64,000 nucleotides of DNA from Zygnema circumcarinatum SAG 698-1b. Taxonomy: Eukaryota > Plantae > Zygnematophyceae. The position numbers were made by a program, and so were the translations under genes. The number at the start of each line of letters is the position of its first letter. Positions within the stretch are counted from its first letter, which is position 1. Where the stretch lies: the NCBI GenBank assembly GCA_037447605.1, contig CM074815.1, forward strand, positions 1,426,001 to 1,490,000, read 5' to 3'. Positions 2,623 to 35,458 of this stretch are shown piece after piece. Below the pieces are notes generated by a model, which was not told the origin of the DNA, ran no database searches, and saw only the letters and a program-made list of their open reading frames with translations.

Positions 2623-2653
2623 CGAACAAACAATCTTGGAAAGAGAAACACAG

Positions 2654-2665: not shown

Positions 2666-2668
2666 AAA

Positions 2669-7400: not shown

Positions 7401-10400
7401 CTCAACTCTTTGTGGGGAAGAAAGATGGTCTTCGCGCATGTGTTGCTCACTATCGGTACTTAAGAGTACAAAGCTCTGCCGAGGTTCGATGCGTTACGTG
7501 CATCGATGACTTGCTGACAGATTGCAAGGTGCTCGAGTATTCACATCACTCGATCTTGCACAAGGTTATCATCAGATTCGTGTGACGGATGCTGATGTAC
7601 CTAAGACGGCGTTTCGTACGCCTATCGGTCATTTCCAGTATAAGGTTTTACCTTCTGGAATCACTGGAATGTTCAATAACCTTCTAGCTTGCCACTATCG
7701 GGAACGTTCATTGGCATGGATGACTTGCGTTTCGGTGCTTTTATGATATCCTCGCCTTTATAACACAGCTAGGACCATCTTCAACATTGCGAGAAAGGTG
7801 TTTGAAGTTTTGAGGGAGCATCATTTTTATGCCAAGTGGAAGAGAGCGTCACTTCACGGCAGCGAGCTGCCCTCATTGGCAGATTAATGATCAGGGCATC
7901 TTGATTGGTATTGGCTAAGGCGGTCGTTGGCTCAGACATGGGAGTACTTGGCCATTCACATCAAATTGGCCTTCTTCATTGCGAATTATTTTTGTAAATT
8001 TATTCAAGGGTTTAGCAAACTTGTTACTCCTCTGCACAAGCACTGGGTGTATGTGGTTGGTGTCACCTACATCCTGATTGCCTGAACGTTGGGTAAGGGC
8101 CTTTGAGGGTGTCAACAGACCTTGTCAGTGGGATTACATTGGTGTTGGCAGTAAGTTGCTAAACCATATGAGGTGGTTTGTATGCGTTGGATTTGTCGGG
8201 AGCCGTCCTATTTCAGCATGGTCACCTCTGTGGACGTAAGGCCGAAGACCATTAAATTCTACGCAATTAATTTAACCGAGCAAGAGCTCTCTAGCAATCC
8301 ATGCCTTGAGGACATGGCGGGGTCATTTAGAGGGGATAAAGCCGCTCACCGCTGTCACGGCATCATCGCCGTCGACATTTCTTTCCTCTCAACAGACATT
8401 GACTAGGCGGCAGGCACGCTGGTCCGAGTTCCTTCAACGATTTGACTGTCAGTGGGTCTATCGACCAGGGAGGTTGAATGTGGCGGACCCATTGAGCAGG
8501 CAGTCGCGACATCTAGCCTGGATGGTGCATTCGTCGACTCGGGTGATGGAGGAACGAAGCGGTCGAGATGAAGGGCCGGCCAACCCTGATTTTCCCTTTC
8601 CGGTATGCCTAGCCATAAACCACCGCACCAGTAGGACAGTCGACCCTCCTGCTCTCTCTGATCTCAGACGGATGATTCAAGAGGGCTATACTGGTGATCC
8701 CTTGTTCTTGGATGGCCAAGGTAGTGGCTATAAGGACAAAGTGGTGCTCTCAACAGATGGGTTTTGCATTCACCTGACGCAATCGTTGTGTCCCCAGACC
8801 GGATATCGCCACGTCAACTCATTCTGAGTGAATTATCCGCCGGATAGAGGTCATATAATGGCGAGATGAGACTGCTCGTGAGTTCTGGTGGCCGGGGCTC
8901 ACGAGGGATGTGAAGGCGTATGTACTCGCCTGTCCCACTTGTCAACGTGATAAGGCACGCACTGGCAGGATTCCTGGCCAGCTGCAACCCTTGACACCTC
9001 CTTTTCGGAAATGGGAGAGTGTTGGCATGGATTTGATCACTGATCTACCTGTCACACCACGGGGTTTTGACTCCATCTTAGTGTTCGTCGATAGGCTCAG
9101 CAAGATGGTGCATTTTGCACCAACTACTAAGACAGCTGGGGCCGATGAGATGGCACGGATATATGTTGACAAAGTATGGAGTTTGCATGGGCTTCAATCA
9201 GAGATTATTTCTGATCGAGATCCCAGATTCACTGGACATTTCTGGAAAGAAGTGCTACGAATCGTGGGTACCAAGCAGGCTATGAGTACAGCCTTCCACC
9301 CGCAAACTGACGGCCAGACGGAGCGGGTGAACCGAATCCTGGAAGATTATCTTCGGCATTATGTGGGACCTACACCGGATGTGTGGGATTAGTTGCTCCC
9401 GGTGGCTGAATATGCCATTAATAATGCGTACCAGGAATCTATCGGTACTACTCCATTTCTTTTTGAATTTTGGTCAGCATCCTCTAAATCCCCTGCAGCC
9501 GAAGGATCAATCCCCTTCTGAGTGGCACATGGGTGTCCACCGAAATCCCGATCCTTGGTGTACGAGAGGAGCTGGTGGGACTCAACCTCCTGCCGTTACT
9601 TCTTTTGTCCGATTGATGTCTGAGTCCTTGCAGCGGGCGCGGCAGACCCTGCAAGCGGCCAACTCCCGACAGAAGTCGTATGCTGATCGCAAGCGGACTC
9701 CACTTACCTTTATTGAGGGAGATGAAGTTTTGTTGAGTACCGCTCATCTTAAACTCAAAGCTTATGGCGGCACCCGTAAGCTGTGGCCACGTTATGTGGG
9801 GCCTTTTAAAGTCGTGAAGCGCATTGGAGAAGTGGCTTACAGTACCGTATCACCAGCCCATATGAAGTGGTATCTGGTTTTTCATGTGAGCTCGCCAAAG
9901 GCTTATGAACACCATGGGGATCCAACCACCTCCTACACCATTGGAGATTGAAGGCGATCTAGAGAATGAGGTAGAAGCCATTCAAACCCACCGAACAGTG
10001 CGAAAGGGTCGCAGATCCCATCACGAGTATCTCGTGAAATGGTTGGGCTATGGGGTTGAACATAGTACTTGGGAGAAAGAAGGCAACTTGACCAATTGCC
10101 AGGAGCTCCTTGCTTTGTATTGGGCGGCGCGGGCCGCCGGAGCGCGGGCGAGGGCTGAACGGGGGGTTCCTGGGCAGTCTTCGCGCAACTCGGACGGGGA
10201 CTTGACCGGGATTATCGCTGAGCCCTCCCGTACGTCATGCAGAGTTCGACGCGTGTCGTCAAAACTGCGAGCTACTTTGACTTGATTTACCCTCGTGAAC
10301 GAGGACGTTCACACTTCGCATTGGGGGGGGGAGTAATGTAGCGAACTGAACGTTAACAGACATTACGGTGCTGCTGCATCTTAGCAATTCCGACGGTTTG

Positions 10401-10829
10401 CTGTACAAGCTGTCTGCGAAGAACTTGTGCGTCAGCTGTACGGGTCCGTACTACCGGTACGGGACGGTACGGACTGACGGCGACTCTGCGGCGTTGGCGC
10501 GTCGCGTTCGAGATCGAACGTATGACCATTGGTCGCTATACAGGTAGTTTATGGTTACACATTGGGAATGCTGGTGACCGCTGACCGGCCTCTCATACAA
10601 CTGGCATTGGACCAGCCGATTGGCCACGTGGCATAGCGCCATTGGCTAGCCCTGCTCCCGGTCCCTTACGCTGGTAAAGGGTTCGACGGGGGGAGCGTAT
10701 AAGGGGCGTGGGATGAATGCAAGAGGGGGTCCTTGAAGGGGGCACTTGCAATCGTTCCAGAAACCAGCATTACATTTAAGTGACTTAGTCTCTAGCAGGC
10801 TTTGGGTGTTGTGCTCAAGGCTTGTTACA
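4408..10829 (+). mobile_element. Full-length Ty3/gypsy chromovirus copy B (family 1); reading frames broken
   Basis: LTRs 4408-4889 and 10337-10829, PBS TGGTATCAGAGC 4893-4904, PPT 10323-10333, TSD GTTAG (4403-4407 / 10830-10834); gag, DSGA protease, RT, RNase H, integrase (WESVGMDLI, FHPQTDGQTERVN) and chromodomain fragments. Confidence 0.95.
8910..10285 (+). pseudogene. Integrase, GPY/F region and chromodomain of copy B (frameshifted)
   Basis: ORFs 8910-9392, 9361-9951, 9905-10285: CPTCQ, RKLWPRYVGPF, EYLVKWLGYGVEHSTWE. Confidence 0.9.
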
Positions 10830-11339
10830 GTTAGAGATGTGTCCCTCTCGTGTTGAGGTAGAGGAGAAGTTCCAGCAAGCATATAGTGCTTAGCTACTGC
10901 AGTTGGGGTGTAAGCTGCCTATCAGTGGATAGAATAGTGCTCATGAGAGGAGGAGAATCGGGCATAAGGTTATATGTAGATTTCCTAAGAGAGCTTGTAT
11001 TACACCTTTGAATGTTAAGGAGTTTTAGGCCGTAGGGCTTTCCCTATACTTGTGTCATCTGGCCACATGTGAGTCCTTGTGTTGATTGGAGGATGAAATG
11101 GGTGGAGGCGAACATTGTATGGGCGGTGTGTCGTGATCACACGCGGAGACCATTGGAGGAGCTACTAAAGGAGCCGAGACTCATGGAGGAGATGAAGAAG
11201 TGTTCTTGTAGGTGGCGCGTTTTGTTTTCCGCTGTGCGCACCTGGTGAGGGGAGGAAGAGAAGGCATACTGTGGCGGATGCGGTATGTGGCCTAAGTAGA
11301 TGTGGAAGAAGTTTTGGAGTGTTCACTCAAGCATGTTTT

Positions 11340-14183: not shown

Positions 14184-17158
14184 TGTAGCGTAACGCTACA
14201 GCGTGACCCTGGAGGCGTACTCATAGTGATACTATGACTATCCCTTCATCTCAGCGCCTAGCGGATAGGTTAGGACGCTGCCAAGACCGCAGGAGGTCTT
14301 GGGCTCGATCCTTGTGGCGTGCAAAGGATCTCTTTTGGATCGTACTGGTCGTCCGTACAGGTGTACGGACGCACNNNNNNNNNNATCCAAATCTTCCTCG
14401 AACAGTCGTCAAGGAAGGTGACGAAGTACCTCGCTCCGCCACTGGTCGCCGGTGTAACTGGGCCACACAAGTCAGAATGTACCAATTCCAACTTCTCTCG
14501 CGCTCGATAGGACTCGTCTCCACTCCTCACGAATGGTCTCCTGTGCGCCTTGCCCTCCACACATTCTCGGCAAACACCCAACTCCTTCTCCACTACACCC
14601 GGGTCTAGCCTACGGACTAGCCCCCTCTCAGCCAACAGCTTCATGCCTCTGTGGTGTAAGTGACCAAGTCTACGATGCCATACATCTACGGCATTCTCTG
14701 AAACTGCATTCACCTCCTCATGATTCTCCCTCTTATAATCAAGATAATACAGCCCTCCTCTCTCATAACCCCTGAACAGCTGTCTCCCAGTTTCTGAGTG
14801 GATAGCCACGCATGACTTCTCCTCAAACAGAACACTGTATCCCTTCTTGCACACTTGGCTCACAGACATGAAATTCTGCATGAGGCCTGGGGTGTGAAGA
14901 ACATCACCAATGAGCAGTTTCTCCTGAACATCGTCTTCATTGATGACTGAGCCGTCTCCGAGGACCATCCTCACGGCTCCACCTCTCGTCACGGTGACTC
15001 CTTCACCGGTTGCTGAATGAACTGAGCGAGCCTTCTCCAAGTTGTCGAGCTTGGAGAACATCGATGTGTCTCCGCACATATGCGTGGAAGCGCCGGAGTC
15101 AATCAGCCACGGCCGCTTCAGGTCCTCTGCCTGAATCCTTCCCACAAAATCGTGCTCAGTATTCTCTGCCAGCATGAGGTTGCTCTCAACCGCTACCTTG
15201 CAAATTAACCTTGTGACCTTCTCTTCTTGCACTTGAAACAGTGCCGCCAACGCCTTCTTTCTTCTTCCTTCTGCCGGATGGTCGCGTTTCCTCCCCTTCT
15301 CGACCGCGGTTCTTGAAACAGCTGCCGGAGTAGTGGCCGGTTCGCCACATGTGAAGCATGTCACATTCGAGCGTTCTCCTCGGGCTGACTTCGGGGCGCC
15401 TCCTCCTCTTCGATTCGGTCGAGTGTGCAACGCGAGCACCTTCTCTTCTTGGCCGCCGACATCCTGAATCGAATCCTCCTCCTTTATCCTACGCTTAACT
15501 TGTTCAAGCTGGCCATAGAGGTATTGGTCGAATCGCCTTCAAGGTCAGCCATCGAACTTCGACCCCCGGCAAACCCCTAGAAACTGCTTATCTTATGGTT
15601 CCGTGATCTAACGGTTTCCCCTAAGGCGAACCTTCCATCAATGCATCAAATCTGACCATATAAGCTTCTAGTTTCTCCTCCGGTCATCTTCTATCTTGCC
15701 TAGTCAGAAAGTGTAAAGATCGACTATAGTCACATTGTCTTCACATCATACACTTCCTCTGTGACACTTCCACATAGCATGAGAGGTTTTCGATCATACG
15801 TTATAGAGGATGGACTTTACGCCATAACACCGCTGGCCGTGGCTTTGTCGTCCTTTGGCCTTCCATCGCGCGAGCGCCACGCCGTTCGACCGCCGCCCAC
15901 AGGCTCCAACCGTAACTCCTACGCCTTTTGATGCCGCCATCAACGTACCTAAGCAACCCTTTGCCCATTAAGCAAAGGCAAGGCACCAACCTCCATCTCC
16001 ACGCTTTGTAATCCTCGCCCCATCGGTGCAGATGCTGAACTCGGGACGCGTGGTCCCTCCAGCTCCATGAGCTCGATAACACTTGCTGGTGGAGGGACCT
16101 CCATCAACGCTTCCACTCGCATCACCTTCCATCGGAGTTCTGCTCCAATCGATGTAGATGACATTTCCCAAACTCTCTCATTCACTCATAGCCCATTTTA
16201 CTCTCAGAGTGAACCTCTCAGAATATGCACAGCGGAAATAACAGAGAGAAAAGGATAGGAGAAAGCTCTCGGCTCTAAAACTCCTTAATAATGATCTTAA
16301 CACCACAATTGAGAGACCCTCTCTCAACTAGCCCAATAAACTCAAAAGCCCACTACCTCGCAGCACAAGCAAGTGTAGGGTTAAGCAACACGAGCAACAA
16401 ACCGAAGTCTACAATAGCTACTGCGATCCGTAAGTTAAAGATTATCAACCAAACAAACAACACATCTATATAATGGCGTCACAACATCCGCGACAATTCT
16501 ACCATACAACGCGAAGCTCACAACATCGGGTTAGCGACCGCAAGGGCCCTATCCTCGATCTCATCCCCGCTGCCGATCCTCGCCGCTCACACGATCCCAG
16601 ACGCTTCCGTCGTGATCCTACTCGCCTTCTAAGCTAATCCACGCCGGCGCCGTAGATCCGACTCCTCGCCTAAGATTGATGACGCTACAAACTCAAGGCT
16701 GCCGCACGCCATCGACATCTCGACGCCGCCCGCATAATGACGACCGCTACGGCCGACATTTGACGCCGCAGACGCTGGCCAAGTCCAATCGCTCAATCCA
16801 GCGTTGACGCCGCCACTTCCGATTCGCTATGCCAGTATTCGCTGCCGCTGGCCATTTTCACTCCGGCCTCGGGTCCGCCACGCCACTTTTCCGATTTCCG
16901 TCACGCCGCTTCGTCACTTCTCGACCACGCTTCTTCCACTCCCACCAAATGTCCGTATTCGCTTACTAACTTAGCGCCAAGACCGCCAGCTTAAGGAAAA
17001 CACACAACACAAACACACAAAACTAATGTTCCAACAAAACATAACTATCATACACTAACAGTTTTATCCTTCCACTAGTTCTTCCGCCTCACACTAACAA
17101 GCCAGATTTTTCATTATTTTCTATCATTTTCAATTGTTTTTTTTTCTATTTTTTGTGC

Positions 17159-17189
<31 letters not shown>

Positions 17190-17206
17190 TGTGTGTGTGT
17201 GGGTGG

Positions 17207-17242
<36 letters not shown>

Positions 17243-20057
17243 GAGTATTTTCGTGTGTGACTTTTACAAACAAAAAAAAAAAACAAAAAATCAAACTAAT
17301 AAATACAACATGAGGCCACATGTTGTAATATTTAGATTGATTATGTTTTTTTTTTTTCTTTTTCTGTGAGTGTGTAGCGAAACGCTACAGTCACCCACGG
17401 GAGGTGTACTTAGGGCGCACTCCGTCCTAGTACTCTCACCCCGGGCGCGGGCCGAGTGGCCAAGGCGTCGGGGACCACCTAGGACCAGGAAGGGTCCTGG
17501 GATCAAACCTTGCGAAGGTTGCAAGGGTTCGATGCGGTGCGGTATACTGAGACATATATGTATCGCTAAGCCGATGTGGTCGTAGGATCACAATCTCACT
17601 ACATCTTCTACGTGCTTTGAACGTGAATCGCTGGCCTCGCATACTACGGTTACCGCTGGTACGACGAGCCGAAGGCCGAACTCAAGGCCAGCGCTGTAGG
17701 GATCCACCGCACCGACGTACGGCGGCGCTGCTGCGCACAAGGCGCTGCGGAATGCGCGGTGAGCTGCCAGACAGTTAGAGCACCTCTCACCCATTCGTGT
17801 CGTAGAGATTACCGCGGGCGTCAGCTATCGATGTTCGCTCCAATCCTCCATGTTGTAAGAGGTTCGGACCGGGGAAGCGTAGGCATGCGGCACCGCCGCC
17901 ACCCAACCAACGACCGGCATTCCCGGGTTGCACCGCCGTAGGCCGCCACCCCTCGGCTCCTAATTCTCTTCTTGCTCTCTCAACTCGAGTGCTGGTGTGT
18001 GATTCCGCAGATCAAGAGGAAGTTTTCAGCCGCTACATTTGGTATCAAGGCGCCTTCTTTTAATAGAGAACTCAAGGGTCATGGTGACCACCGCCGGGCC
18101 GGGAGGGGACCCGGGCCTTGGGAAGCCGCCATACCTCCACCACCCGCCCCCTGACGCAGGTGATGGAGGAGGAGAACTCGAGACCGCTGCCCTTTCATGG
18201 AGGGGCCTGGGCCCAGCCCACGGATGACCATAGTCATCTTGTGATCGCCAGTTCTTTTCTCGCCAATGAGAGTCAGCCGGTTCCTCGAAAGCAATAATAC
18301 GTAACTGNNNNNNNNNNNNNNNNNNNNNNNNNNNNNNNNNNNNNNNNNNNNNNNNNNNNNNNNNNNNNNNNNNNNNNNNNNNNNNNNNNNNNNNNNNNNN
18401 NNNNNNNCAGGGACTAGCGGTATAGTCTGACCTTCCACCCTGGTGAATGGCTATTGCGGCGGGTAGGCAGGATTAAGGCTATTTGAGGCATTATGTGGGA
18501 CCTATCCCGAATGGATGGGATGAACTGCTCCCGGTGGCTGAGTACGCCATTAATAATGCATTCCAGGAATCAATCGGTACCACTCCTTTCTTCTTGAACT
18601 TTGGTCAGCATCCTCTAAATCCCCTGCAGCCAAGAGATCAGCAGCCAGATGTGTGGAACATGGATGTTCACGGGCTCCCAGATCCTTGGGGCATGAGAGA
18701 GGAGGCCCCGGTGAGGTGGCCTCGCCGTTAGTCTTTCACTCGGGGAAAATGTCCGAGATTCTGAGGAGAGGGCAGGCGGGACACATTGGCGGTCCTTGGC
18801 TGTGACCCGTGATCGTCTTGCACATTAACCTTCATTTGTGAAGCGATCGGAATGTGACACGCGTCGAACTTCGCGCCCCGAAGACTACGGCGGAACGTGG
18901 TTGTGGCACCAGCTTCATGGGACCTTTCGGTGGGTAGGCGAATGGGGTGAATTAAACACCGGTTGGCTTTACCGGCTCATATGAAAGTGCATCCGGTCTT
19001 TCACGTGGGTCTTCTTAAGGCATACCGCAGCGATGGGAGAGTCCAACCACCTCCCCCTCCAGTGGAAGTTGAGGGTGACCTCGAGTATGAGGTAGGGAAC
19101 CCGTCCAAACCCACCGGGGCTGAGTAAGAGGTGGAACTTCCGCCACACGAGAATATCTGCGTGGTAAGTTTGGGCTATGGGGGTTGAACTATAGCGTGGG
19201 AGCGATGAGAGCAATCGACAAATTGCAGGGCTCCTGGGGTGTGGGAGGCATGAACCCCATTTGGTGGCTAGGAGGTTCACAGAGACCATCCACCTTGTAC
19301 TTTTCCGGAAAGGGACGGCCGGGATGAGCCCTCAGGTACACCCGCATGAGAGCAGAGCGAGCTACCTCTTAAGTACTTGTTTGCCAAGATTACTTTTCCC
19401 GGTGACGAGGCGTTCCGCGTACTCTGAGGGGAAGTAATGTAGCGTAACCTTCAGCGTGACCTGGCGTACTCATAGTATCTGTATTTACCCTTCATCTCGG
19501 CGCTGGCGGATAGGTTAGAGGCACTGCCAAGACGCTGAGGGTCTTGGGCTCGATCTGTGGCGTGCAAGGATCTCTTTTGGACCCGTCTTTGGTCGTCCGT
19601 ACGGGTACGGACGCACCGTATAGATCCCGCGGCCAGAGATTTGGCCCTTGGCGGCCTGCGTGGCGCCGCCCCGACAGCCCGACGCGCTTGAATGCGGCGG
19701 CAAATCCTGACAAATACCGTCAAGATGCTATGCGGACGAGGCTGGCCAGTCGACTCTGTCGGTGGCGATGCCCATTTACCGCGGCTTGGCGCGCACCCGT
19801 GAGAATCTTGGCCGAGACCGCGAAACTGTCCTTAGCGAATAACTTCGGCTGGGATCACCGCCGTGGCGGGCTTTCTGATTAGGCGATCCGGCTCGGTCCT
19901 CCGTCTTTGGTAGGGGGTTCGAGGGGGCTTAAAGGGCGCGCAGGATGGGAGACCATCGAGCTCTTTGGCTGCGGCATTGAATAAACCTCTCTCTCTCTCT
20001 CTCTTCCTCTCTTGACACTTAGACTCTCGAGCAGCTTTGCGAGGCATGTTGTTACCA
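14184..20057 (+). mobile_element. Ty3/gypsy chromovirus E (family 3) nested in copia C; mostly lost in assembly gaps
   Basis: 5' LTR start 14184-14374 then N gap; integrase end/chromodomain (GDLEYEV) 18408-19430, PPT, 3' LTR 19438-20057; TSD CATTG at 14179-14183 and 20058-20062. Confidence 0.8.
14385..18307. other. Gap-bounded second copy of about 20968-24850 (copia 5' half, LTR, GT flank, start of gypsy D); probable assembly redundancy
   Basis: Bounded by N gaps at 14375-14384 and 18308-18407; repeats the same unique LTR flanks and junctions at an offset of ~6.58 kb. Confidence 0.8.
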
Positions 20058-22640
20058 CATTGCCTCCCTCTCGGCGCTTCAGATCCTCGAGATCTTGCTG
20101 GCGTGGGCGGGACCGTCTCCCGCGAGTTCTCTACCCGCTTTGGGTAGGTGTGAAAGGGGTATTCTCCGGCTGGCTGTGCGGCTCCTCGCTATGCGCCTCC
20201 CCGCGAGGCGTCTCTCCATCATCAGCCGGCTCACTTGTCGCTGCCGCTGGCTCGGCTCCTTCATTTGCCGACGTGCTGGCACCCTGCACAGCACCACCCT
20301 TCTCTCCAACTGTTTCTCCCTCCTGCGTACACGATCGAGGTGGGTCTTCGTGAGGTAAAGATGATGCGGCAGCTCCAGCAGCCTTATCTTCATCAGCTGT
20401 AATGTCTCGTCACGGAGAACTTCCAGCGGTCCGAGGTTCCAAACTCTAGCCAAGTCGCATTGCTTTGGCGGTGTTGTGGCGAGCTGCGTAGCCCTCCGCG
20501 GCTTCGAGGGGTCAGATTTCTTCTTCACGTCGCGCCTTAGGCGTCGCGGCCGGCGTAGCGCCAAGGTCTCGGTGGGAAGCTGTGGGCTTCCTCCCCTCCA
20601 CATCTGCTTTCGGGGACCTGGTCTTCCCGAGCAGAAAGGCGGACATCATTCTAATGTAGCGGCGTAGAAAGCGCTTTACTCTCTCCCCAAAAAGGCCGGA
20701 AGGGGGAATCAATCAACATGGTCCTGGCCATGTCCCCCAATGTCCTATTCACACGTTCAGCTGCTCCATTACTCTGTGGGGAATAGGGGGCTGAGAATTC
20801 ATGCCTTATACCGCGGTTCTTCAGAAACGCTGCGAATTCCTTCGATTTGAACTCGCCACCATTGTCCAAACGAAAAGCCTTCAGCTTCAGTCCCGTCTCT
20901 GTCTCCGCCTGGTTNCAGCCAGTCTCGAAAGGCTCCGAAAGCCTCTGACTTGTTCTTCAGGAGTGTAATCCAAATCTTCCTCGAATAGTCGTCGAGAGGT
21001 GAAGTACCTCGCTCATGCTTGGTCGCCCGATTATGGCCCGGGCCACACAAGTCGAGAATGTACCAATTCAACTTCTGCCAGCTCGATGGGACTCGTCTCC
21101 ACTCTCAGTGGTCTCTGTGCGCCTTGCCCTCCACATTCTCGGCAAACGCAACTCCTTCTCCGCTACACACGGGTCTAGCCTACGGACTAGCCCCCTCTCA
21201 GCCAAAATCTTCATCCCTCTGTGGTGTAAGTGACCAAGTCTACGATGCCATACATCTACGGCATTCTCTGAAACTGCATTCACCTCCTCATGATTCTCCC
21301 TCTTATAGTAAGATCATCTGTGACCCTCACTTTCTCATAACCTGAGCAATTTTGTCTCGGTTTAGAGGTGGATAGCCAGCATGACTTCTCCTCAAACAGA
21401 AAACAGTATCCCTTCTTGCACACTTGGCTCACAGACATGAAATTCTGCATGAGGCCAGGGGTGTGAAGAACATCACCAATGTGCAGTTTCTCCTGAACAT
21501 CGTCTTCATTGATGACTGAGCCGTCTCCGAGGACCATCCTCACGGCTCCACCTCTCGTCACGGTGACTCCTTCACCGGTTGCTGAATGAACTGAGCGAGC
21601 CTTCTCCAAGTTGTCGAGCTTGGAGAACATCGATCTCCGCACATATGCGTGGAAGCGCCGGAGTCAATCAGCCACGGCCGCTTCAGGTCCTCTGCCTGAA
21701 TCCTTCCCACAAAATCGTGCTCAGTATTCTCTGCCAGCATGAGGTTGCTCTCAACTGCTACCTTGCAGTCTGAACTCTTGTGACCTCTCTTCTTGCACTT
21801 GAAACAAGTGCCGCTGAACGCCTTCTTCTCCTTCTTGCCGGATGAAGTCGCGTTTCCTCCCTTCTCTGGACTGCTTTTGTTCTTGAAACAGTCGCTGGAG
21901 TAGTGGCCGGTCTTGCCACATGTGAAGCATGTCACATTCGAGCGTTCTCCTCGGGCTGACTTCGGGGCGCCTCCTCCTCTTCGATTCGGTCGAGTGTGCA
22001 ACGCGAGCACCTTCTCTTCTTGACGTGGAGCATCACGGGTCGAGATCCTCCTCCTTTATCTCGGCTTAACTTGTTCAGTCATAGAGTATTGGTCGAGAGC
22101 GTCCTCAAGGCTGCCAAGAGCTTCGAATCTCTAGGAACCCGAAACCCACTAGAAACTGGCTTATCTTGTAGTGCATCCTACTTGGTTTCCCTAAGGTACA
22201 TGAACCTCTCCGTAATGCATCAAATCTGACCATATAAGCACGTTTCTCCTCACGAAGTCATCTCCAAATCTTGCCTAGGTGTAAGTATTTATGAGATGCA
22301 TTGTCTTTCACATCATACATCTCTTCTAGACACTTCCACATAGCATGAGAGGTTTTCAGATCATACAGCATAGAGGATGGACTTCCTCTTACGCTCATAA
22401 CGTCTGCGTCGAGGGCTTTGTTGTCGCGGCCTTCATCGTCGCGAGCGCCATTACGTGCTCGACTGCGCCATTTGAGGCTCAACCGGTAGCGCTCCGAGCG
22501 CCTTGATCTTTTGCCATCAGCATTACCCAAGCAACCCTTTGCCCACAAGCAAAGGCACCAACCTCCATCTCCACGCTTTGTAATCCTGCCCATCGAACGC
22601 CGGTATGCTGAACTTGACGTGGTCCTCCGAGTCTCCATGA
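20058..22640 (-). pseudogene. copia gag (two CCHC knuckles), protease, GAG-pre-integrase and integrase, frameshifted
   Basis: FDGQDYKAW, CFTCGKTGHYSSDC, CFKCKKRGHKSSDC, WLIDSGASTHM, WHRRLGHL, DNGGEF, YSPQSNGAAERVNRT. Confidence 0.92.
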
Positions 22641-23746
22641 GCTCTGATACCACTTGTTGGTGGAGAGGACTCCTCCCTTCTTGCCCAGAAACTACTCCAC
22701 TCGCATCACCTTCCGCCGGAGTTAAGTTCCCGATCGATGATGACATTTCCCAAACTCTCACATTCACTCATAGCCCATTTTACTCACGAGTGAACCTCTC
22801 GGGGAATATGCCGGAATAACGAGAGAGAAAGGATAGGAAAGCTCGGCCTCTAAACTCCTTAATAATGATCTTAACACCACAATTGAGAGACCCTCTCAAC
22901 TAGCCCAATAAACTCAAAGCCCACTACACCAGCGGCTGCAAGCAAGTGTAGTGTTAAGCAACACGAACACACTTGACTTCTCGAGTCTACAATAGCTTCT
23001 ATTTGGTGATCCGAAGTTAAGATTATCGGCAAACAAAGCAACACACTATCACGATGTCACAACATCAGGTGACACTACCAGCACGAAGCTCACAGCATCG
23101 GCTAGCGGCGCAAGATATCCGATCCTCATCTAGCGCCGTCCGGATCCTGCGTCGGCTCACACGGATCCCGTCACGTTTCCTCTGTCGGTCAGGCTCGGCC
23201 TCCCCAAGCTAATCCGTCGCTGCGGCGTGAGATCTGACCAGCCTCCAAGATTGATGGCGCGTCAAACTCAGCGTCGTCGCACGCCACCGACATCGGCGCT
23301 CCGTTACAATGATGAATCGCCTTGAGCATTTTGGCGGCATGGCGTCGAAATCCGTCGTTGATCAAAAGGTTGGCCTTGCAGCGTCCGCCGGTCAGCGGGG
23401 TGGCGCGTCCCGCCACATCTTCAATTAAGCTCGCGTAAAGCGTCAGCGCCGTCACTTTCCGATTCGTCACGTCGCGCCTCGTCACTTCTGACTCCGCCGC
23501 GCCGCGCCTCTTCCACCGACCAAATGTCCGTACCGCCGCCTACTAACTTAGGCGCGCACCGCCGCCAAGGAAACACACAACACAAACACACAAAACTAAT
23601 GTTCCAACAAAACATGCTAACTATCATACACTAACAGTTTTATCCTTCCACTAGTCTCTTCTGCCCCCTCACACCAACAGTTCGCATTCTTCATCATTTT
23701 CTTCATCATTTTCTGAATTGTTTTTTTTTTTTTTCATTTTTTGTGC

Positions 23747-23777
<31 letters not shown>

Positions 23778-23792
23778 TGTGTGTGTGGGTGG

Positions 23793-23830
<38 letters not shown>

Positions 23831-23949
23831 GAGTATTTTCGTGTGTGACTTTTACAAACAAAAAAAAAAAACAAAAAATCAAACTAATAAATACAACATG
23901 AGGCCACATGTTTGTAATATTTAGATGATTATGTTTTCTTTGTGAGGTG

Positions 23950-26900
23950 TGTAGCGAAACCTTCTGAGTCACCCGCGGGAGGGAGATACTTAGGGGCGCA
24001 CTCCGTCGAGTACTCTCTCACACCAGGAGCCTTGAGCCGAAGTGGCCAGGCGTCGGGGTTCCTAGGACGGGGAAGGGTCACGGGATCCGAGCACTGCAGT
24101 TTGGGGTTAGATGCAGCGGTATCGAGACATATATGCTGTCGCGTCGCCCGTGTGGTCGAGGATCCCCGGAATCCCGACCACATCTTCCTTACGTTTTGGA
24201 ACGTAACCGTCGTCCGTACAATTACGGTTCACGTTGAGTGCGGACGGTGGCACGATCGAACCGGCGCCGCCTTGGGGATCAACCGTTACGCGGCGCTCTT
24301 GGTGGCGTCGCGGCAGCAGCGCCAGCGAATCACGGTGTGAGCGTTAATGCGTTGGCACACCTCGACCCGTTCGGGTCCGGAGGACACGTGGCGGTCTGCG
24401 TTGGGCCGACCACGCTTCCAATCCTCCATGCTTGTAAGAGGTTGGCCGAGTAAAGGGGCGTGGTGGTTTATCCGTCACCCAACAGCGATACCGACATTCG
24501 GTTGCACCTGTAGAGTGCGCCACCCACTGAAGTTCTTGCTCCTCTCTCTCTCTCTTGCTCTCTCTCGTGAACTTCGAGGTCTTTGGTGTGTGATTCAGCC
24601 TTGAGGCGAAGAGGAAGTTTTAGGTCGTTACATTGATATCGAGCGGCGTTAGCGACGCTTCTCTTCAGCCAAGGGAGCACGCGGTCATGGTGACCACTTT
24701 CGCCCAGGGCGGAGGGACCCGAGGGCCTCGGGGCCGCCACCCCTCCACCACATCCCCGGGGCGAGGTGATGGAGGCTCGAGCTGGCAGTAGTCCCCATCA
24801 GGAGGGGGCCCGGGTCAGGAGCCTGACCAAGGTCATCTTGTATTCTTGCCCACTTTCAGCGCCAGGAGCGGCGGATTCCGGCGAGAATCGATCCCGTGAT
24901 CGGGGCCCGCATCCGCAGTGGCGGCCTTAAAGATGAAGAAGAGGATAGAGGATGCAGGGAAGGATATTGTCAATACTCCAAAAATATGTAGGTTAGGAGG
25001 CCTTTCGGACGGACTCAGAAAGGTCGAGGAAGGTATGCACGAACCCCCTCGGTACAGCGTAGAAGCGTGAATCACGGCGAGGTCACAGGGGAAGGGGTTA
25101 AGGCAAACCCCTCGGTAGCGTTATGCGTCAGCGCTGACCCATTTCGCAGGAAGCGGCCGGTGAAGTCAGGGACCCACAGTTTTTTCCGCGAGGATTCACC
25201 GGGGGTGGCGAACCACCGGCGTGGGGACCCCCGTGCAGAGGCGTTCTTTGAGGAGGAGAATCCGATCCTCGGTGCTCCTCACGCAACCCTAGTGAAAGGA
25301 TGCGGCAGAATCGGGCCAAGGTAGCCCGCTTTCCCTTTAGGGCGAACACACATCACCGCTCAATTGAAGCATTGAGGATTTGGAATCAAGCGAAGGGGCT
25401 ACTACGGCGATAGCGGCATCCCCTCCCGATTGGGTAAGCTTTGCTTACCCGGCACTTTCAGAAGGAGCCGCGCCACCGTGTGTATGAGGGCGCACTCCCC
25501 GATGAATTGGGGACGATTGGGTTTGATTCGAGGAGATGAACTTATCAAACACACTTTGGGGCCTTGGATCGGCTTGGAGAGCCGGGATAAGGATTCGAGC
25601 ACATGGTTGAGCCGGCGTCAAGCGTTTCTGCGAGACACTGCGACAGAGTACCACTCCCACAAGCTTTGGTGGTGAGTTCATTTTCCACGCCGGGAATGGC
25701 TTGAAGCCACACGAGGCGACTAAGAACTAACCCACGGACTCACGAGAGCAGGTGGGACCCTGTGGCTACGAGGCGTACTTTGATGCGGCCATTGATTGGA
25801 CACACGCCCTGCGGGCGTCACGAGCCCTTCGACGGCGGAGGTGGGGCGGCGTGTTTGAGGGCGGTACGGAGGCGGGACCCTGGCTCTACCAAAGCGGCGG
25901 GGAAAGAACAGCGAAGCGGCGGGCGTGGCCCCGCGCCCACCTTGCGACGCGGTGCCCGGTGACTCGGAAGAAATGGAGAAGATCACGGCCCGGAGAACAA
26001 GTGTTCAGATTCGCGCCAAGGAGGCATAAGGCCCGGGGATTCTTTGTAACGAGCGGTATACATTGGGTGTATGACCTACCAATGCTTACATCTGCGGTTG
26101 CCTTTTAATGGTAAAACACTTAGGTGAATGCAAGGGAGGTCGAGTTCGAACCTGCTTTGGGCGGGTTTATTACATTGTTAATTATCGAGCCTAAGGGGCG
26201 TACGATCCACCCTAAAAACACCGTGATCGCTGAGCATGGTACAGATTGGTTGAGCTGGAGCAGCCAAGTCTGTAGGTCCATGTGATGAAGGGGCTTGAAC
26301 GCGCTCGTGAAAACCCTTGAGCATGGTGCTCGAGGACGAGCACGGTTCAGTTGGGGAGGAATGCAACGAACGGTATACATTGAGTGTATGACCTAGTACT
26401 TACATCCGCGGTTGCCTTGTAATGGGAAAGCACTTAGGTGAATCTTAGGGAGGTCGAGTTCGAACCTGCTGGGCGGGTTTGTTACATTATCGAGCCTAGG
26501 GGCGGTATTTGCAATCCACCTAAAAACACCGTGATCTCACGAGCATGTGCAGTTGGTTATTTGGGCGACCAAGTCTGTGAGTCGTGTGATGAAGGAATGA
26601 GCGGCCTTCGTGAAAACCCTTGAGCGTGGTGCTGAGGGGCGGTACCAGTTTAGGTGGGGAGGAATGTAGCGAGCGATTACATTGAGTGTATGACACAGTA
26701 CTTACAGCCATGATTTGCCCAATAGTAAAGCACTTGGGTGAATCTTAGGGAGGGTCGAGGATTCGAACCACAACTTTGGGCGGGTTTTATTCTGATTACT
26801 TTCTCAACACCAAGGACAAGAAGGGCAAGGGGCCGGAAAACCCCAACCCACCAGCAGCTTAGGGGTCGTTGCTGGTGGACATGCTAGGCTAGGGGGAGGG

Positions 26901-29900
26901 AATGGGGCTGCCATCAAGGATAGGAGACTATTGTTTCTTAGAACCTTGGACATTCTTAACTTGGTGGGCAGGCCTTTGGGAGTGCAAGATCTCTTTGTGT
27001 TTGATGTACTCCCTTCTTCCATTTCTCTTTCCCCTGCCACTGTAGTGACTCCTCCTGGGTTTATGGATGTGGTGATGCATGGTCAATGGAATGTGTTTAT
27101 CCTCAATGTCATGGGTAATGATGTCTTGGTGAATTGTGCCATGAATGCCATGCATGTCATGCGGGACACATCTTATATATCGCTACTTGTTGCATGTCTT
27201 TGGTTCCTTATACGTAGCGAGTTCACTTACAACACCCGGCTTGGCGGTTGGTGGCACCGATTGAGAAGGGCACTGCGTTGAGTGCCGAGAAATGGAAGGA
27301 TCACCGGCCTGGCACGGTTGGCTCACCTTACACACATTGGTGTGGAGGGGCGGCTCGTCCTCACCCCGCCCCGCACATAGTCACGTCTATGTTCCCACCT
27401 TGCCCATCGTGCCATGACCTTCATCGGGTTCAGCCAATGGCCACCCAGCAGTTCTACTGCTAGATACTGGGGCAGATGCTAACTTTGTTAGTTCTACATT
27501 CACCCAGAGATTTGGGTTGACCACAGATCCCCATTGAGAAAGTGTTACTTTTCGAGGATGAGCCTTGAAAGGGCGGATCTCGGTAGCGTCACGCTCAAGA
27601 TCCAGAAGCAGATACACTCCGAGGTCAAGAGTGTCTTACAACACAAGCTGGCCCCGAAATGCTTGATGTTATTTTGGAGAGTGCTTGGTTAACCATGGTC
27701 AAGGCACGATGGACTTTACGTCCCGCATTGCATTCTTCACCCGGTGGTGACGGACACCGCACCTGGCGGGCACATCCCTTGTATCAAGCGACTTCCAGCA
27801 CTCCTTATCTATGCTTTCGCAATTTATGCAATTGGCCATGAGTTAAGGAGGATGCACCTTGTTCATGGTGCATGTCATGGCGGCCGCGAGATGTTCATGG
27901 CCGAAGATCGGGGAGTGGAAGATCACATCGCGGCGTGCTCTCCCTAACTTTCCCTCGATTCAACCTCTGTTGGTTTGAATTGAGGATGTCTTCCGGTGAC
28001 TTCAAGAGGGTTGCCCCCAGCCGAAGAGGGTGCGGGCACACAATCCCTCTTGAGCTTCGAGCACAAAAACGCCTTGGCTGACGATCTATCGATTAAGCAC
28101 GAAAGAAATGTCGAGGAGATCTTGGCGGTTAGCGCTTTTACGTGACAAAGTGGATGGGAACCGATCAAAGCCCCTTTGGGGCGCCCATCTTGTTTGTTGG
28201 GAAGAAAGATGGTTCGTTGAGGATGTGCATTGATTATCGCGCACTCAACAAGATCACTGTAAAGAACCGTTTGGCTTTACCACGTATTGATGATTTGTTG
28301 GATCGTCTTCACGGCGCCAGAGTGTTTACTTCACTCGATCTTGCTCAGGGGTACCATCAGATCCGCGTCACGGAAGCTGATGTGCCAAAAACTGCATTCC
28401 GGACGCCGATTGGTCATTTTCAATATAAGGTGTTGCCCTTTGGATTGACTAATGCTCCGGCGACTTTCTAGGCTGTCATGAACGAGATGTTCATCGGCAT
28501 GGACGAGTTTGTTTTGGTTTACCTGCGTGACCTCAGCCTTCTCTTGATGAGCCGAGAGGGAGGAACATCGCTGAAACAGCGTTAGAAAAGTGTTTGAGAC
28601 CACGAGGAAACACCAATTTTATGCCAAGGAGAGAGAGTAGCCGCTTCATGCGGTAGCGAGTTGCTTTATCTTGGGCATATTCTCAATGATCAGGGCCTTC
28701 GGCCAGACCCTGCCAAAGTTTCAGCGGTAGAAACTTGGGCACCACCGACTGACTTGCATCAGTTGAGGTCTTTCTTGGGATTTGCGAACTATTTTCGTAA
28801 GTGCATCCAAGGGTTTAGTAAGTTGGTTACTCCCTTGACTAATTTGACACGTTCCGGTGTCCCCTTTACATGGACCCCTGAATGCCAGGAAGCATTCGAG
28901 GGCGTGCGCCATGCACTTGTTACCGCGCCCACTCTCCGTTTAGCGGACCCGTCCAAGCCTTATGAAGTGGTTTGTGATGCTTCGGGATTCGCCTTGGGTG
29001 CCGTCTTGTTTCAAGATGGTCAACCTCTGGCGTATGAAAGTCGCAAAATGAATCCCGCTGAGCGCAACTATTCTGCAACAGAACAGGAACTGCTTGCAGT
29101 GGTCCACGCCCTGAGGACATGGCGGTGCTATTTAGAGGGGCCCGGCGATCCACGGCCAGTCGCGACCACCGCCCGTGACGTTCCTCCAGCCGCCGGACCT
29201 GTCTGGGCGTGGGGCACTGGCCAGTGCGAGTTCCGTCCGAGGTTTATTTGCCGGTGGTATCGGCTGGAAGAGGCGGATAGCAGCAGAACCAGCGGCCGGG
29301 CAGCCACAGGCATCTTCTGGATGGTCGCTGCGTCGACTCTACCAGTGTTGGTGGAACGAGAGGGCCGGTGAGGGCCGGCCAACCCAGTCTCCGTCTCCGG
29401 TATGCTTTGTGTAGATCCCTCCACCCGGTGGCCTTGATCAACCCTCTGCTTTCTCTGCGATCTCCGGGCAGAGATGATCGAGGGGCCCTCTTGGTGATCT
29501 TTGTTCTGGATGGCCCAGGTAATGGCTATAAGGACAAAAGTAAATTGTCTAGAGCCGGATTTTTGGTACCGGCCAGCGGTTAGAAGAAGGTCGTGCCCAA
29601 AGTAGGGGCGTCTGGCCGACTCGTGCAGGTGAGCTTCATGATCCTCAGGTACCCGAGGTCACATGGGGTTACCCAAAACCCGTGAGCCTTTCCGAGAGTT
29701 ACGGTGGCACGGACTCGGGGATGTGGCGTATGTCTTTAAGCTTGTCAACTTGTCATGAAACAAACCCCGCCTTGGCGGGGATCCTGGCGGTTAGCGACCC
29801 TCACACCTCCTTTTCGAAAATGGGGCCGGTGTGGGTATGGACTTGATCCGCAGTCTTCTGTGTGACACCTGGGGGAGCATGACTCCGTCCCTGCGTCTTT

Positions 29901-31799
29901 GTCGATAGAAACCGGCAAGATGGTGCACTTTGCACCAACTACTAAAACGGTTTGGGGCCAGGCAGAGATTACTGCGGTTGTATGGCGACAAAGTGTGGAG
30001 CGGCATGGTGCCGATCGAGAAATTGTGTCGACCCGTGATCCACGATTCACCGGCCATTTTTGGACGGAAGTGCTCAAAATCGTTGGGACCAAGCAGGCGT
30101 TGAGTACAGCTTTCCACCCGCAAACCGATGGCCAGACGGAACGGGTGAACATGATCTTGGAGGATTACCTCGGCATTATGTGGAACCTACCGGATGGGTG
30201 GGGACGGCTTGCTTCGGTAGGTATGCCATCAATAAAATGCTTTCCGAGTCCATTGGTACCACCTTTCTTGCTTCCCGAGAACTTTGGTCGGCATCCCACT
30301 AAATCCCGCAGCAAGGGATCCGGGTCCCACGATCCAGCGGGCATGGGCGTCCACAGGGAACCCCGATCCTTGGAAGGCGAGAGGGGGCTGATAAAGGACT
30401 CAACCTCACTTTGATCAAATCTTTGTCCAGAGCTAATATGCAGCTGACTGCGGGGGCGCGGCCGGACCACTGTAGCGGCCCGGTCGCGACAAAGGCCTAT
30501 CTTTGACGTCAGTACTTGCTCACATAGCGAGGCGGTGAGATATTCTTGAAATGCGACAACTTGAGACTCAAAGCTTATGGCCGGGTTTCTGCGTAAGATT
30601 GTAGCCCGTTTCGCCACAGGACGCAGGTGCGTGAAGCGAATCGATGATGTAAAAACGGGTTGGATTTACCATCCCGTGGGGGTGCGCATCCGGTCTTTTC
30701 GTGTGGGTTTGCTAAAGAGACTCTGCGAAGTAGCGATGGGAGGATCAACCACCTCCCCGCGGTGGAACTTGAAGGTGAACTTAGTATGAAGTTGGAAACC
30801 ATTTCCAGCCCGCAGTATTGTGAGAAAGGGTCGCTCTTCCCGTCACGAATACCTCGTGAAGTGGTTGGGCTATGGGGTTGAACATAGCACATGGGAAGCC
30901 GAGGGCAACTTAACCAATTGCCAGGAGCTCATCAACTTGTACTGGGAGGCGCAGGCCGCAGGAGAGCGGGCGAGGGCGGCACGGGGGGTTCCTGAGCCGT
31001 CCCCGCGCAACTCGGAAAGGGACTTGACCGGGATTATCGCTGAGCCCTCCCGGTTATCACGTAGAGTTCGACGCGTGCCGTTGAAACTACGAGCTGCCTT
31101 TACTACCCCACACACGTGAACGAGGGCGTTCACATTCTCACAGGGGGGGAGTAATGTAGCGAAACGCTACAGTCACCCACGGGAGGTGTACTTAGGGCGC
31201 ACTCCGTCCTAGTACTCTCACCCCGGGCGCGGGCCGAGTGGCCAAGGCGTCGGGGACCACCTAGGACCAGGAAGGGTCCTGGGATCGAACCTTGCGAAGG
31301 TTGCAAGGGTTCGATGCGGCGCGGTATACTGAGACATATATGTATCGCGTCGCCGATGTGGTCGAGGGATCACGGAATCCCGACCACATCTTTGTGCATG
31401 GAGCGTGGCGCCGTCTGCGTTTCGGGCACGTCGTGGACGGGCTGGCTGGACCCCGCGCGCGCGCGTGGGTGCGGCGTGCACTGGCGTGCACGCGGGCGGA
31501 TGGGGGTAGGCGTCGTGCATTGTGTCATGGCAGTCGAGAGGGACACGCGCAGTGCTACGTGGGCAGCCATCTTCCAATCCTGCAGTAGTTGGTGGGAGGT
31601 TTGGCGGGGAAGCGTAAAGGGGCATGGGTGACTGTCGTCACCCAACCAACGTACCGGCATTCGGTTGCACCCCTGCCGAGGGCTGCGCCACCCCCTGAAG
31701 TTCTTGCTCCCTCTCTCTCTCTCTTGCTCTCTCTCGCTGAACTCAGAGTGCTGGTGTGTGATTCCGCGCAGACTGAAGAGGCAGTTTTCAGTCGTTACA
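23950..31799 (+). mobile_element. Full-length Ty3/gypsy chromovirus D (family 2) carrying a TRIM insertion
   Basis: LTRs 23950-24632 and 31155-31799, degenerate PBS at 24633, PPT GGGGGGGAG before 31155; DTGA protease (~27460), RT 28142-28471, RNase H 28661-29150, integrase, chromodomain EYLVKWLGYG. TSD approximately GTGTG (imperfect). Confidence 0.93.
26045..26799 (+). mobile_element. Tandem TRIM (LTR-int-LTR-int-LTR) with tRNA-like LTRs
   Basis: LTRs 26045-26174, 26362-26486, 26665-26799 (TGTAA...TTACA); two homologous ~180-bp internal parts each starting with a degenerate PBS (TTATCGAGCC) and ending in PPT GGGGAGGAA; no ORF; interrupts D gag right after the zinc knuckle. Confidence 0.85.
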
Positions 31800-32239
<440 letters not shown>

Positions 32240-32240
<1 letters not shown>

Positions 32241-32700
32241 GTATTTTCGTGTGTGACATTTACAAACAAAAAAAAAAACAAAAAATCAAACTAATAAATA
32301 CAACATGAGGCCTCATGTTGTAATATTTAGATTGATTTTTTTTATTTTTTCCCTGTGACTGTGTTTGTGTGTGTGTGTATTTGCGTGTGTGACTTTTACA
32401 AACAAAAAAAAAAACACTCTCAATATTACAACATAAGGCCTAATGTTGTAATATTAAGATTTGTTGTTTTTTTGTTTTCCCTGTGACTGTGTTTGTGTGT
32501 GTGTGTATTTGCGTGTGTGACTTTTCCTAACAAAAAAAAAAAAAAAAAAAAAAAATCAAACTAATTAATACAACATGAGGCCTCATGTTGTTATATTTAG
32601 ATTTTTTTTTTTTTTTTTTTTTAAACCACACACAAACTGCGAAGACAGAATGAGGCCTCTTTTTGTTTTCTCAGTTTGTGTGTGGTTTTTTTTTGGTTTT
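32240..32700. repeat. Tandem array of AGGCCT-centred hairpins with A/T tracts and short GT runs
   Basis: Palindromes at 32299-32322 (24 bp perfect), 32422-32455, 32570-32591 (22 bp perfect), 32623-32688; a related unit at ~23880-23930. Confidence 0.9.
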
Positions 32701-33283: not shown

Positions 33284-34060
33284 CCCGCCTAGCTGAAATT
33301 TTTTTTGGGTTGTGATATTTCCACCCCTTTTTTGGATCCAAACACCCCTTCCCGGCCGGGCAGATTTCAAAAAGGATTAAAAACGGAAAATGCTTTTTTC
33401 ACACCTTTTGGAATCGATACCCACCCTCCATCGGCTGATTTTATTTTTGCGAAACAAGGAAAATGATAACCCGTCACCCCATTTTGAATATCTCGCTTAC
33501 CTGAATTTCTTTTCACGCGTGCGGTCAATCGCAGCCGTCGATTCCATCGCAAATCGCAACACGGCAGATCACTATTTGATCTGCAGCCAGGCTCGGTCAC
33601 AGCGAATGGCACGTGCCCACGTATCCCGCCAAAGTCGCCTCAAAAGTTGTTTCGTACAAATGTCGTACGGTCGCTACTTTGAAGAACCCAAAATTTCGTA
33701 CATTGAGAGCTTGGACCAATCAAAATTTTCCACGTTAAAAATGTAACACGTGGCACCTGTTGATTGGCTGGGAGCTAACAATGACGAGATCTCGGGCCGA
33801 TCGACGCGCGCACTCGCAGGTGCGATTCGGCTTTGACGGGACTCGTGGGCGCTTTCCATTCGCTAAGATCGAGCCCGGCTGCAGATCGAACGGTGACCTG
33901 CAGTGATGCGATCTGCGAGGGAATCGACAGCTGCGATTGACACACACGTGTGAAGGACGGACACAGGCGAACAATCTCGTGGCGGACGGATCTTCCACTT
34001 CGAGCGGATTCGGGCTGGCAGATATTTCTTTCCCTCAAAAAAAAATTTCAGCTAGGCGGG
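33284..34060. mobile_element. MITE-like non-coding element with 23-bp TIRs
   Basis: CCCGCCTAGCTGAAATTTTTTTT ... AAAAAAAATTTCAGCTAGGCGGG, flanked by AT on both sides; internal imperfect inverted repeats 33521-33609 / 33856-33943. Confidence 0.6.
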
Positions 34061-35000
34061 ATACAGTATTCAAAATGCAGTGACGGGGTATCATTTTCCT
34101 TGGTTAGCAAAAATAAAATCAGCCGACGGAAGAAGGTGGGTATCGATTCCAAAAAGGTGTGAAAAAAGCATTTTCCGTTTTTAATCCCTTTTGAAATCTG
34201 CCCGGCCGGGAAGGGGTGTTTGGATCCAAAAAAGGGGTGGAAATATCACTACCCTTTTTTTTTGAGGGAAAGAAATATCTGCCAGCCCGAATCCGCTCGA
34301 AGTGGAAGATCCGTCCGCCACGAGATTGTTCGCCTGTGTCCGTCCTTCACACGTGTGTGTCAATCGCAGCTGTCGATTCCCTCGCAGATCGCATCACTGC
34401 AGGTCACCGTTCGATCTGCAGCCGGGCTCGATCTTAGCGAATGGAAAGCGCCCACGAGTCCCGTCAAAGCCGAATCGCACCTGCGAGTGCGCGCGTCGAT
34501 CGGCCCGAGATCTCGTCATTGTTAGCTCCCAGCCAATCAACAGGTGCCACGTGTTACATTTTTAACGTGGAAAATTTTGATTGGTCCAAGCTCTCAATGT
34601 ACGAAATTTTGGGTTCTTCAAAGTAGCGACCGTACGACATTTGTACGAAACAACTTTTGAGGCGACTTTGGCGGGATACGTGGGCACGTATCCATTCGCT
34701 GTGACCGAGCCTGGCTGCAGATCAAATAGTGATCTGCCGTGTTGCGATTTGCGATGGAATCGACGGCTGCGATTGACCGCACGCGTGAAAAGAAATTCAG
34801 GTAAGCGAGATATTCAAAATGGGGTGACGGGTTATCATTTTCCTTGTTTCGCAAAAATAAAATCAGCCGATGGAGGGTGGGTATCGATTCCAAAAGGTGT
34901 GAAAAAAGCATTTTCCGTTTTTAATCCTTTTTGAAATCTGCCCGGCCGGGAAGGGGTGTTTGGATCCAAAAAAGGGGTGGAAATATCACTACCCAAAAAT
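33301..35000. repeat. Large inverted repeat: ~745-bp arms, 209-bp spacer
   Basis: 33301-34045 is the near-exact reverse complement of 34255-35000; mirrored ORFs (33735-33998 / 34302-34565) are identical. Confidence 0.95.
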
Positions 35001-35458
35001 AATTTAACTTTCCAGACGTTTCTACTTTACCTTTATCGCGGGTCACTTTTCTGGGCGGCGACCTCGGACTTACCGTACCGTACCAGTACGGTATGGAAAA
35101 GTTTCGGTCGGAACTCGATTTCAGTAAAACACCGTTATCCAATCTCCAAAACCAATTCCGTATTACGTACTTTTTTATACTGTACGGTAAGTCTGAAGTC
35201 TGAAGTCTGAAGTCTGGAGTTTGTGGACTCTGAAGTTACCGTACTGGTATGCCTTTTTCTTAAAATCTTTCCTTGTTCAAAAATTTGAATTCGATCCCTA
35301 CGGATTTTTACGGATTCGCCTCTTTTCAGAGTCGAAATCCGTAGTGAGAAAATTCTGCAACCGGAAACTGAAAACATGACATCAACATACGTCATTCAGT
35401 TTACAAACCTCCCCTACTATGAAAGGGAGGCCAGTGGAGAGATCTGTGTGGTGAATGC

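Follow-up and report, generated by a model that had tools for sequence, protein, structure and literature searches.

A tandem TRIM of Helenus type, its tRNA-like LTR segment and the chromoviruses around it

Short LTR elements with Pol III-type promoters and the present array

For TRIMs driven by Pol III (Cassandra, Helenus, Ajax), neither the route of origin nor the autonomous partners responsible for mobility have been settled. The Cassandra LTR is described as 5S-derived (bioRxiv 10.1101/2023.07.14.548913), and no autonomous partner is known for it according to Kojima 2024 (PMC10886601). The latter study defined Helenus, giving Selaginella as the sole plant host, and proposed an origin by SINE insertion into a TRIM LTR; LTR similarity to an autonomous partner was not found and was deemed unlikely, and tandem arrays are reported for one fish family, LTR-11_DR (PMC10886601). 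Many other Repbase LTRs resemble tRNA, the TRIMs alone having been analysed further (PMC10886601). Pol III transcription, putative in the present array, is unvalidated for Helenus too (PMC10886601, Discussion). Tandem forms are well documented: the three-LTR form is given for 65/97 tandem TRIM copies in beet (PMC13570524), and about 20% of intact Cassandra copies in pear are described with three to five LTRs (PMC4079214).

The array studied here lies on the + strand of a 64-kb window, the whole stretch of DNA analysed, and runs from 26045 to 26800 (756 bp) in the order LTR-I-LTR-I-LTR; the first-pass annotation had recognised these three LTRs and two internal parts, placing the end one base short, at 26799. 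The LTRs measure 130, 125 and 136 bp (83-90% identity) and the internal parts 187 and 178 bp (82% identity). LTR1 (26045-26174; TG..CA), with an A-box-like motif at 26098-26111 and a B box at 26144-26152, is followed by internal part I1 (26175-26361), which holds a damaged iMet PBS (26182-26191), a folding stretch and a PPT (26353-26361). LTR2 (26362-26486; A-box-like motif 26412-26425, B box 26458-26466) is shared by both units, and is followed by I2 (26487-26664; damaged PBS 26487-26496, PPT 26656-26664) and by LTR3 (26665-26800), the most diverged, with an A-box-like motif from 26715, a B-box variant at 26761-26769 and an altered terminal CA. Both internal parts open at a CA-TT junction followed by the damaged iMet PBS and close with GGGGAGG followed by an AA-TG junction, the PPT GGGGAGGAA occurring at 26353 and 26656. 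Thus, the PBS and PPT previously noted are both there; yet the PBS, then called degenerate, is intact in contigs of the same family (GGTATCAGAGC, runs X5 and X21). The monomer (26045-26486, 442 bp) is non-coding with TG..CA LTRs, the two tested ORFs that overlap it gave no Pfam match, and no further copy was found elsewhere in the 64-kb window. The flanking TTCTT (26040-26044) and TTCTC (26801-26805), which match at 4/5 bases, form a TSD candidate.

Besides PBS and PPT, some 160 additional bases in the internal parts are able to fold (fold z -3.05 for I1, -0.5 for I2). In the predicted fold of both, the stretch after the PBS pairs with that before the PPT around three hairpins. Its conservation is borderline (p ~0.05-0.06): 26/59 pairs are shared, a value attained in 32/500 nulls (25/500 for the reverse), and no two-sided change was seen in the shared fold. 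The predicted structure may be regarded as a candidate packaging signal.

In anatomy the array resembles Helenus/TRIMp3: it is non-coding, its 442-bp monomer falls inside the 311-1263 bp range, its short LTRs carry tRNA-like A and B boxes and then a T-rich end, and it has an iMet 3'-end PBS, a PPT and a candidate 5-bp TSD, the length given for plant and fungal Helenus families (PMC10886601). Unlike the LTRs displayed in that publication, those of the array have weaker, more decayed A and B boxes; compared by eye with Helenus-1_SMo (Selaginella moellendorffii) as printed, the array shares no sequence beyond generic tRNA motifs, and Helenus-1_SMo ends in TGTTAG..CCAACA like the Copia of the window, whereas the array ends like chromoviruses (PMC10886601). 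A motif search of the Kojima 2024 supplement gave no match to six array motifs (PMC10886601). The PBS of the gypsy and Copia elements in the window is of the plant iMet type, which differs from the fungal PBS forms appearing in those data (PMC10886601). A rust fungus as host was rejected on this ground; a streptophyte alga, or else another non-seed plant, is the likely host. With Cassandra, as it is described, the array has in common a Pol III-type LTR promoter (putative here), a Met PBS and frequent three-LTR tandems (PMC7215508, PMC4079214). Unlike Cassandra, however, it yields no Rfam match to 5S at E<=10, which speaks against this identity. Retrozymes are hammerhead-bearing non-autonomous LTR elements, and the array resembles them in being a small non-coding LTR element with folding internal RNA; no ribozyme family of Rfam matches it at E<=10 and its TGATGA..GAAA words lack hammerhead core pairing (by eye), which speaks against a retrozyme. 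With chromoviruses (Ty3/gypsy, chromodomain) the array shares termini, iMet PBS and the PPT-AA-TG junction but, unlike them, encodes nothing. A tRNA PBS excludes a typical self-priming Tcn1 (clades and PBS types as set out in PMC6317226).

We read the array as a degenerate TRIM dimer of the known Helenus/TRIMp3 type; what is new lies in the neighbouring chromovirus LTRs, which seem to have the same termini and the same tRNA-like segment. The earlier suggestion of a possibly new family is overstated; tandem TRIMs and TRIMs that bear tRNA sequence have both been described before. The explanation as a whole (a Helenus-type TRIM dimer, a putative Pol III promoter in the LTR, and a chromovirus as origin and helper) is given a probability of roughly 0.6. 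Devoid of the chromovirus link, the locus would merely add a host to a type already known; a high-copy TRIM family beside chromoviruses with the same termini and, apparently, the same tRNA-like segment allows both origin and partner to be tested within a single genome, and would extend Helenus to a gypsy-dependent family of the green lineage, likely algal.

The tRNA-like segment

The B box GTTCGAACC occurs at 26144 and 26458, with a one-base variant in LTR3 at 26761, and the A-box-like motifs stand 45-46 nt upstream of the B boxes, which is tRNA spacing. Measured against TRGCY..YGG, the A box reads TTGCC (4/5) with TGG in 2/3 LTRs, one mismatch and extra bases; measured against GGTTC, the B box reads AGTTC (4/5). 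The partial acceptor-like pairing TCCGC/GCGGG reported before is borne out, taking up 5/7 acceptor positions in tRNA register as read from the sequence. The CTTAGG arm likewise forms when LTR2 and LTR3 are folded to minimum energy, although these two fold no better than shuffles (z +0.7 and +0.6; LTR1, -2.5). The B box alone is common, with 27 matches versus 18.7 expected.

A sequence-only tRNA profile (tRNA positions 8-62; 64 distinct tRNAs of E. coli and phages, not eukaryotic) was run blind, in glocal mode, over both strands of the 64 kb. Among the 800 window peaks LTR3 ranks 1st, LTR2 3rd-4th and LTR1 7th, their scores being reached by 0/1000, 0/1000 and 2/1000 shuffles, respectively; the controls (I1, I2 and the LTR start of chromovirus family A; the labels A, B and C are coined in this analysis) score like shuffles. 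The TRIM LTR scores of 14.7-20.7 bits compare with a median of 38.7 for real tRNAs. The tRNA structure search proposed in the first-pass annotation found no tRNA in the TRIM LTRs, whether with Rfam, ARAGORN or a structural model built from 68 tRNAs; of the 18 window matches of the last, none lies on the + strand of any LTR. Searched by nhmmer with a tRNA HMM, LTR3 alone responded (E=2), and phage BLAST gave two weak matches, the best a tRNA-Gln at E=3, which are not counted. Given tRNA-like profile ranks, yet no cloverleaf and a weak A box, we classify the array as a degenerate TRIM of Helenus/TRIMp3 type. The tRNA-like character claimed for the LTRs thus holds for B boxes, spacing and profile ranks but not for a cloverleaf or a strong A box; judged by sequence, the segment is likely tRNA-derived, with B-box core and spacing kept and the cloverleaf lost.

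The first-pass annotation overlooked that two families of full-size chromoviruses in the same window also have the tRNA-like segment in their LTRs. On the + strand it lies at 31231-31291 in the 3' LTR of B, with a near-identical copy in the LTR starting at 17373, and at 14254-14324 in the family C LTR that starts at 14184, with a second copy in the LTR at 19439-20057. In the same profile the C copies rank 2nd/800 (LTR 14184; 3/1000 shuffles) and 18th (22/1000), the B 3' LTR 8th-9th/800 (10/1000), the B copy at 17373 22nd-23rd/800 (32/1000) and the noisy B 5' LTR 78th/800 (153/1000). The B and C segments align in register with those of the TRIM. In B and C the segment also folds into strong non-tRNA hairpins (z -3.5 and -3.9), one helix of which shows a two-sided change between the families. 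The B hairpins lie at 31215-31320 and 17433-17538, where the B-box-like word pairs with a second such word downstream; the first 140 nt of the family C LTRs comprise the tRNA-like segment, which also folds into three hairpins. The latter LTRs (14184-14374 and 19439-20057) sit in Copia with an exact 5-bp TSD (CATTG/CATTG), and what lies between them is scrambled across N gaps. Family A is represented by copies at 1-3181 and 4399-10832 in opposite orientation; in the one at 1-3172 the gag and pol frames are open, and the family A LTR start lacks the tRNA-like segment.

Could the likeness be fortuitous, the motifs being part of a hairpin-rich chromovirus LTR leader with no tRNA ancestry? Every structural tRNA search was negative, roughly one in 20 stretches as long as an LTR contains a B-box-like word (0.051), and the eight LTR copies are related, hence not independent tests. 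Nonetheless, 7/8 LTR sites fall within the top 23/800 peaks on the same strand and in register across three far-diverged families, and the family C segment aligns over the full-length tRNA model (5.0 bits, E 0.067 in 101 nt). We consider such a coincidence very improbable, and continue with a segment of likely tRNA origin.

Probable chromovirus relatives and a proposed mode of mobilisation

The array interrupts gag, at its zinc-knuckle end, of the decayed chromovirus B (23950-31799, + strand), in which RT, RNase H and chromodomain are identified by Pfam and gag is placed by tblastn; its LTRs occupy 23950-24632 (5', noisy) and 31155-31799 (3'). A chromovirus RNase H piece has its best named homologue in Closterium (63%), the one named entry among the top 8. 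In family contigs the LTR start TGTAGCGAAACGCTA is that of chromovirus B, with 15 identical terminal nt; the TRIM 3' end is TTACA, and termini, PBS and PPT are common with the chromovirus and not with Copia. The local Copia has other termini and no similarity to the TRIM LTRs. Beyond the termini, LTR2 is collinear with B LTR positions 22-148 (0/500 shuffles, z 4.5; z 3.7 with the first 20 nt left out). When the three TRIM LTRs are scanned over the window, which gives 499 peaks, copies of B take ranks 1 and 4, family C is at ranks 32 and 191, and the B 5' LTR is at 238. LTR1 and LTR3 give z ~2 against B, the control of LTR1 versus LTR A giving z 2.2; LTR halves alone are not significant, nhmmer finds no homology between TRIM and B or C in either direction, and the TRIM internal parts cannot be matched clearly with B, C or A. 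On sequence comparison, homology between the TRIM LTR and the first ~150 nt of the B LTR, although weak, is likely but not proven.

The alleged parasitism on a chromovirus accordingly keeps shared termini, PBS, PPT and a weak collinear LTR homology in its favour, with the helper itself predicted; the evidence for it is stronger than first presented, owing to the 15 shared terminal bases and that homology. A chromovirus with the tRNA-like module already present in its LTR is the likely source of the TRIM, and likely also mobilises it. Compared with Helenus in Kojima 2024, for which no similar partner was found, there is here moderate evidence for LTR similarity to a partner (PMC10886601). In the openly accessible literature searched, we found no report of an autonomous LTR element whose LTR promoter derives from a tRNA. 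Given the tRNA-like segments that Kojima noted in other Repbase LTRs, such a link may be commoner than the published record makes it seem (PMC10886601).

Under the explanation that we favour, TFIIIC would bind the A and B boxes of the 5' LTR, and transcription by Pol III would begin ~45 nt from the LTR start, run across the LTR end and the internal part, and terminate within the 3' LTR or beyond it. The TRIM LTR ends in three T, in LTR1 and LTR2 only. Sense-strand T4 runs are absent from LTR2 to the LTR3 B box and from the internal parts, and the whole array before the end of LTR3 has a single one, inside the LTR1 A box; Pol III could thus transcribe the TRIM in full, though 381-694 nt free of T4 is a weak statistic. 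Chromovirus B, on the other hand, has 13 T4 runs in its internal region and T4 at the LTR end, so that Pol III would be unable to make its genomic RNA. Chromovirus Gag would package the TRIM RNA, reverse transcription would be primed by tRNA-iMet and the PPT, and the chromovirus integrase would insert the product (AA-TG..CA-TT ends, 5-bp target). Priming by tRNA-iMet and PPT and insertion by a chromovirus integrase are what established LTR-retrotransposon biology predicts. The dimer may stem from read-through RNA, template switching or duplication in place. As for origin, the TRIM LTR would correspond to the first ~150 nt of a segment-bearing chromovirus LTR joined to an LTR 3' end; the module, a passenger or boundary in the autonomous LTR, would have become a promoter once a deletion joined it to a short internal part. 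That streptophyte-alga chromovirus LTRs carry a tRNA-derived Pol III module near their 5' end and spawned a Helenus-type TRIM by deletion is put forward tentatively, as something short of an even chance. If true, a TRIMp3 has been caught beside its own progenitor and helper, and an autonomous element captured the Pol III promoter first, as opposed to a SINE landing in a ready-made TRIM.

The same observations might be accommodated by an ordinary TRIM of chromovirus descent, transcribed by Pol II or by read-through, in which the tRNA-like segment is a relic, a TFIIIC boundary or a folded RNA element and not a promoter. The presence of the segment in the LTRs of full-size chromoviruses, whose genomic RNA Pol III could not produce, the weak A box, and the alternative hairpins of B and C, including the helix with a two-sided change, are all compatible with this; yet the TRIM retained just that part of the LTR, a simple scan finds no TATA-like motif in it, contigs with differing sequence on either side retain the B box, and anatomy and size fit Helenus (PMC10886601). 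A segment of this passive sort is unlikely in our judgement, though far from negligible. The putative promoter remains our preferred reading.

Family copies, assembly quality and neighbouring features

Contigs that match the TRIM number 96, 79, 28 and 0 in runs X5, X6, X21 and X22, variant contigs occur in 5/6 runs (one with a different 139-nt flank), and one TRIM piece lies within a 10,342-nt contig. Some family contigs connect LTR, internal part and LTR, and the joints seen fit whole monomers. The LTR start of the family, TGTAGCGAAACGCTATACA, is found both after the PPT and after other flanks. A flank in X3, X5 and X6 resembles the array locus's own left flank and may represent the same insertion. 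B boxes (GTTCRAACC) are present in family contigs of X5 and X21 in slightly differing contexts, few contigs spanning the core. In X5 the depth reaches 100,000 over the LTR core and ~12,500 over the internal part, a summed depth that does not equal copy number; the excess over the core hints at a further family having the entire LTR core in common. Neither an internal-LTR-internal (dimer) junction nor a TSD pair at other copies occurs among the family contigs listed, and the 10 matches of a metagenome pattern scan were all chance by BLAST and profile check.

In all four DNA runs contigs join the left and right flanks of the array directly, with ~4 nt of the left flank unaccounted for; this means that other copies of chromovirus B do not carry the array, and that the insertion site has not lost any long piece of sequence. 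Loose ends before 26802 that resemble the window's left flank were seen in 6, 7, 4 and 6 contigs of the four DNA runs. This empty site rules out a local tandem repeat as well as a deletion between two separate insertions. Multi-copy contigs and the empty site together bear out the earlier view of a dispersed family, and support a non-autonomous multi-copy element that, in this assembly, is inserted as a dimer.

Even if the family is real, the three-LTR form could be an artefact, a monomer having been duplicated in a noisy, scaffolded long-read assembly. Among repeat copies of the window 91/151 gap events are of one base (indel/substitution 0.4-0.5), one PBS base is lost identically at four places (both TRIM units, the B 5' PBS and one Copia PBS), N gaps join unlike elements, and none of the contigs listed spans the dimer junction. 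The units, however, differ by many substitutions (I1/I2 82%; transitions 19/31), and three-LTR TRIMs are described as common (PMC13570524, PMC4079214), which makes such an artefact very improbable; we retain the dimer as an element form. Part of the apparent element decay may nevertheless be assembly error, the best sequencing run containing 0.13 of words. Indel enrichment at CWG sites is weak (p 0.02; p 0.08 in the coding part alone). Dating from LTR divergence (K2P 0.11-0.20) was rejected because indel noise makes distances unreliable, which applies to all three values (I1/I2 0.21, LTR1/LTR3 0.20, LTR1/LTR2 0.11).

Several other features of the window deserve mention. Around or beside family B LTRs, at 17154-17375, 23742-23949 and 31800-32620, (TG)n is combined with arrays of a ~128-bp palindromic A/T-rich unit, possibly reflecting a target preference or a second small element. 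A 3.8-kb duplication (14385-18169 and 20968-24775; 77% identity), bounded by N gaps and comprising a Copia part, a TG array and a B LTR, could represent a haplotype placed wrongly during scaffolding, or else a noisy duplicate. A 750-bp inverted repeat at 33296-35005 (99.5%), with internal palindromes, is a young foldback-like element or an artefact. Finally, a multi-exon gene with GYF-like domains occupies 42579-48880 on the - strand; the only named close-ish homologue of its GYF-like exon, the best of 5 matches, is from Spirogloea muscicola (35%, E 4e-7).
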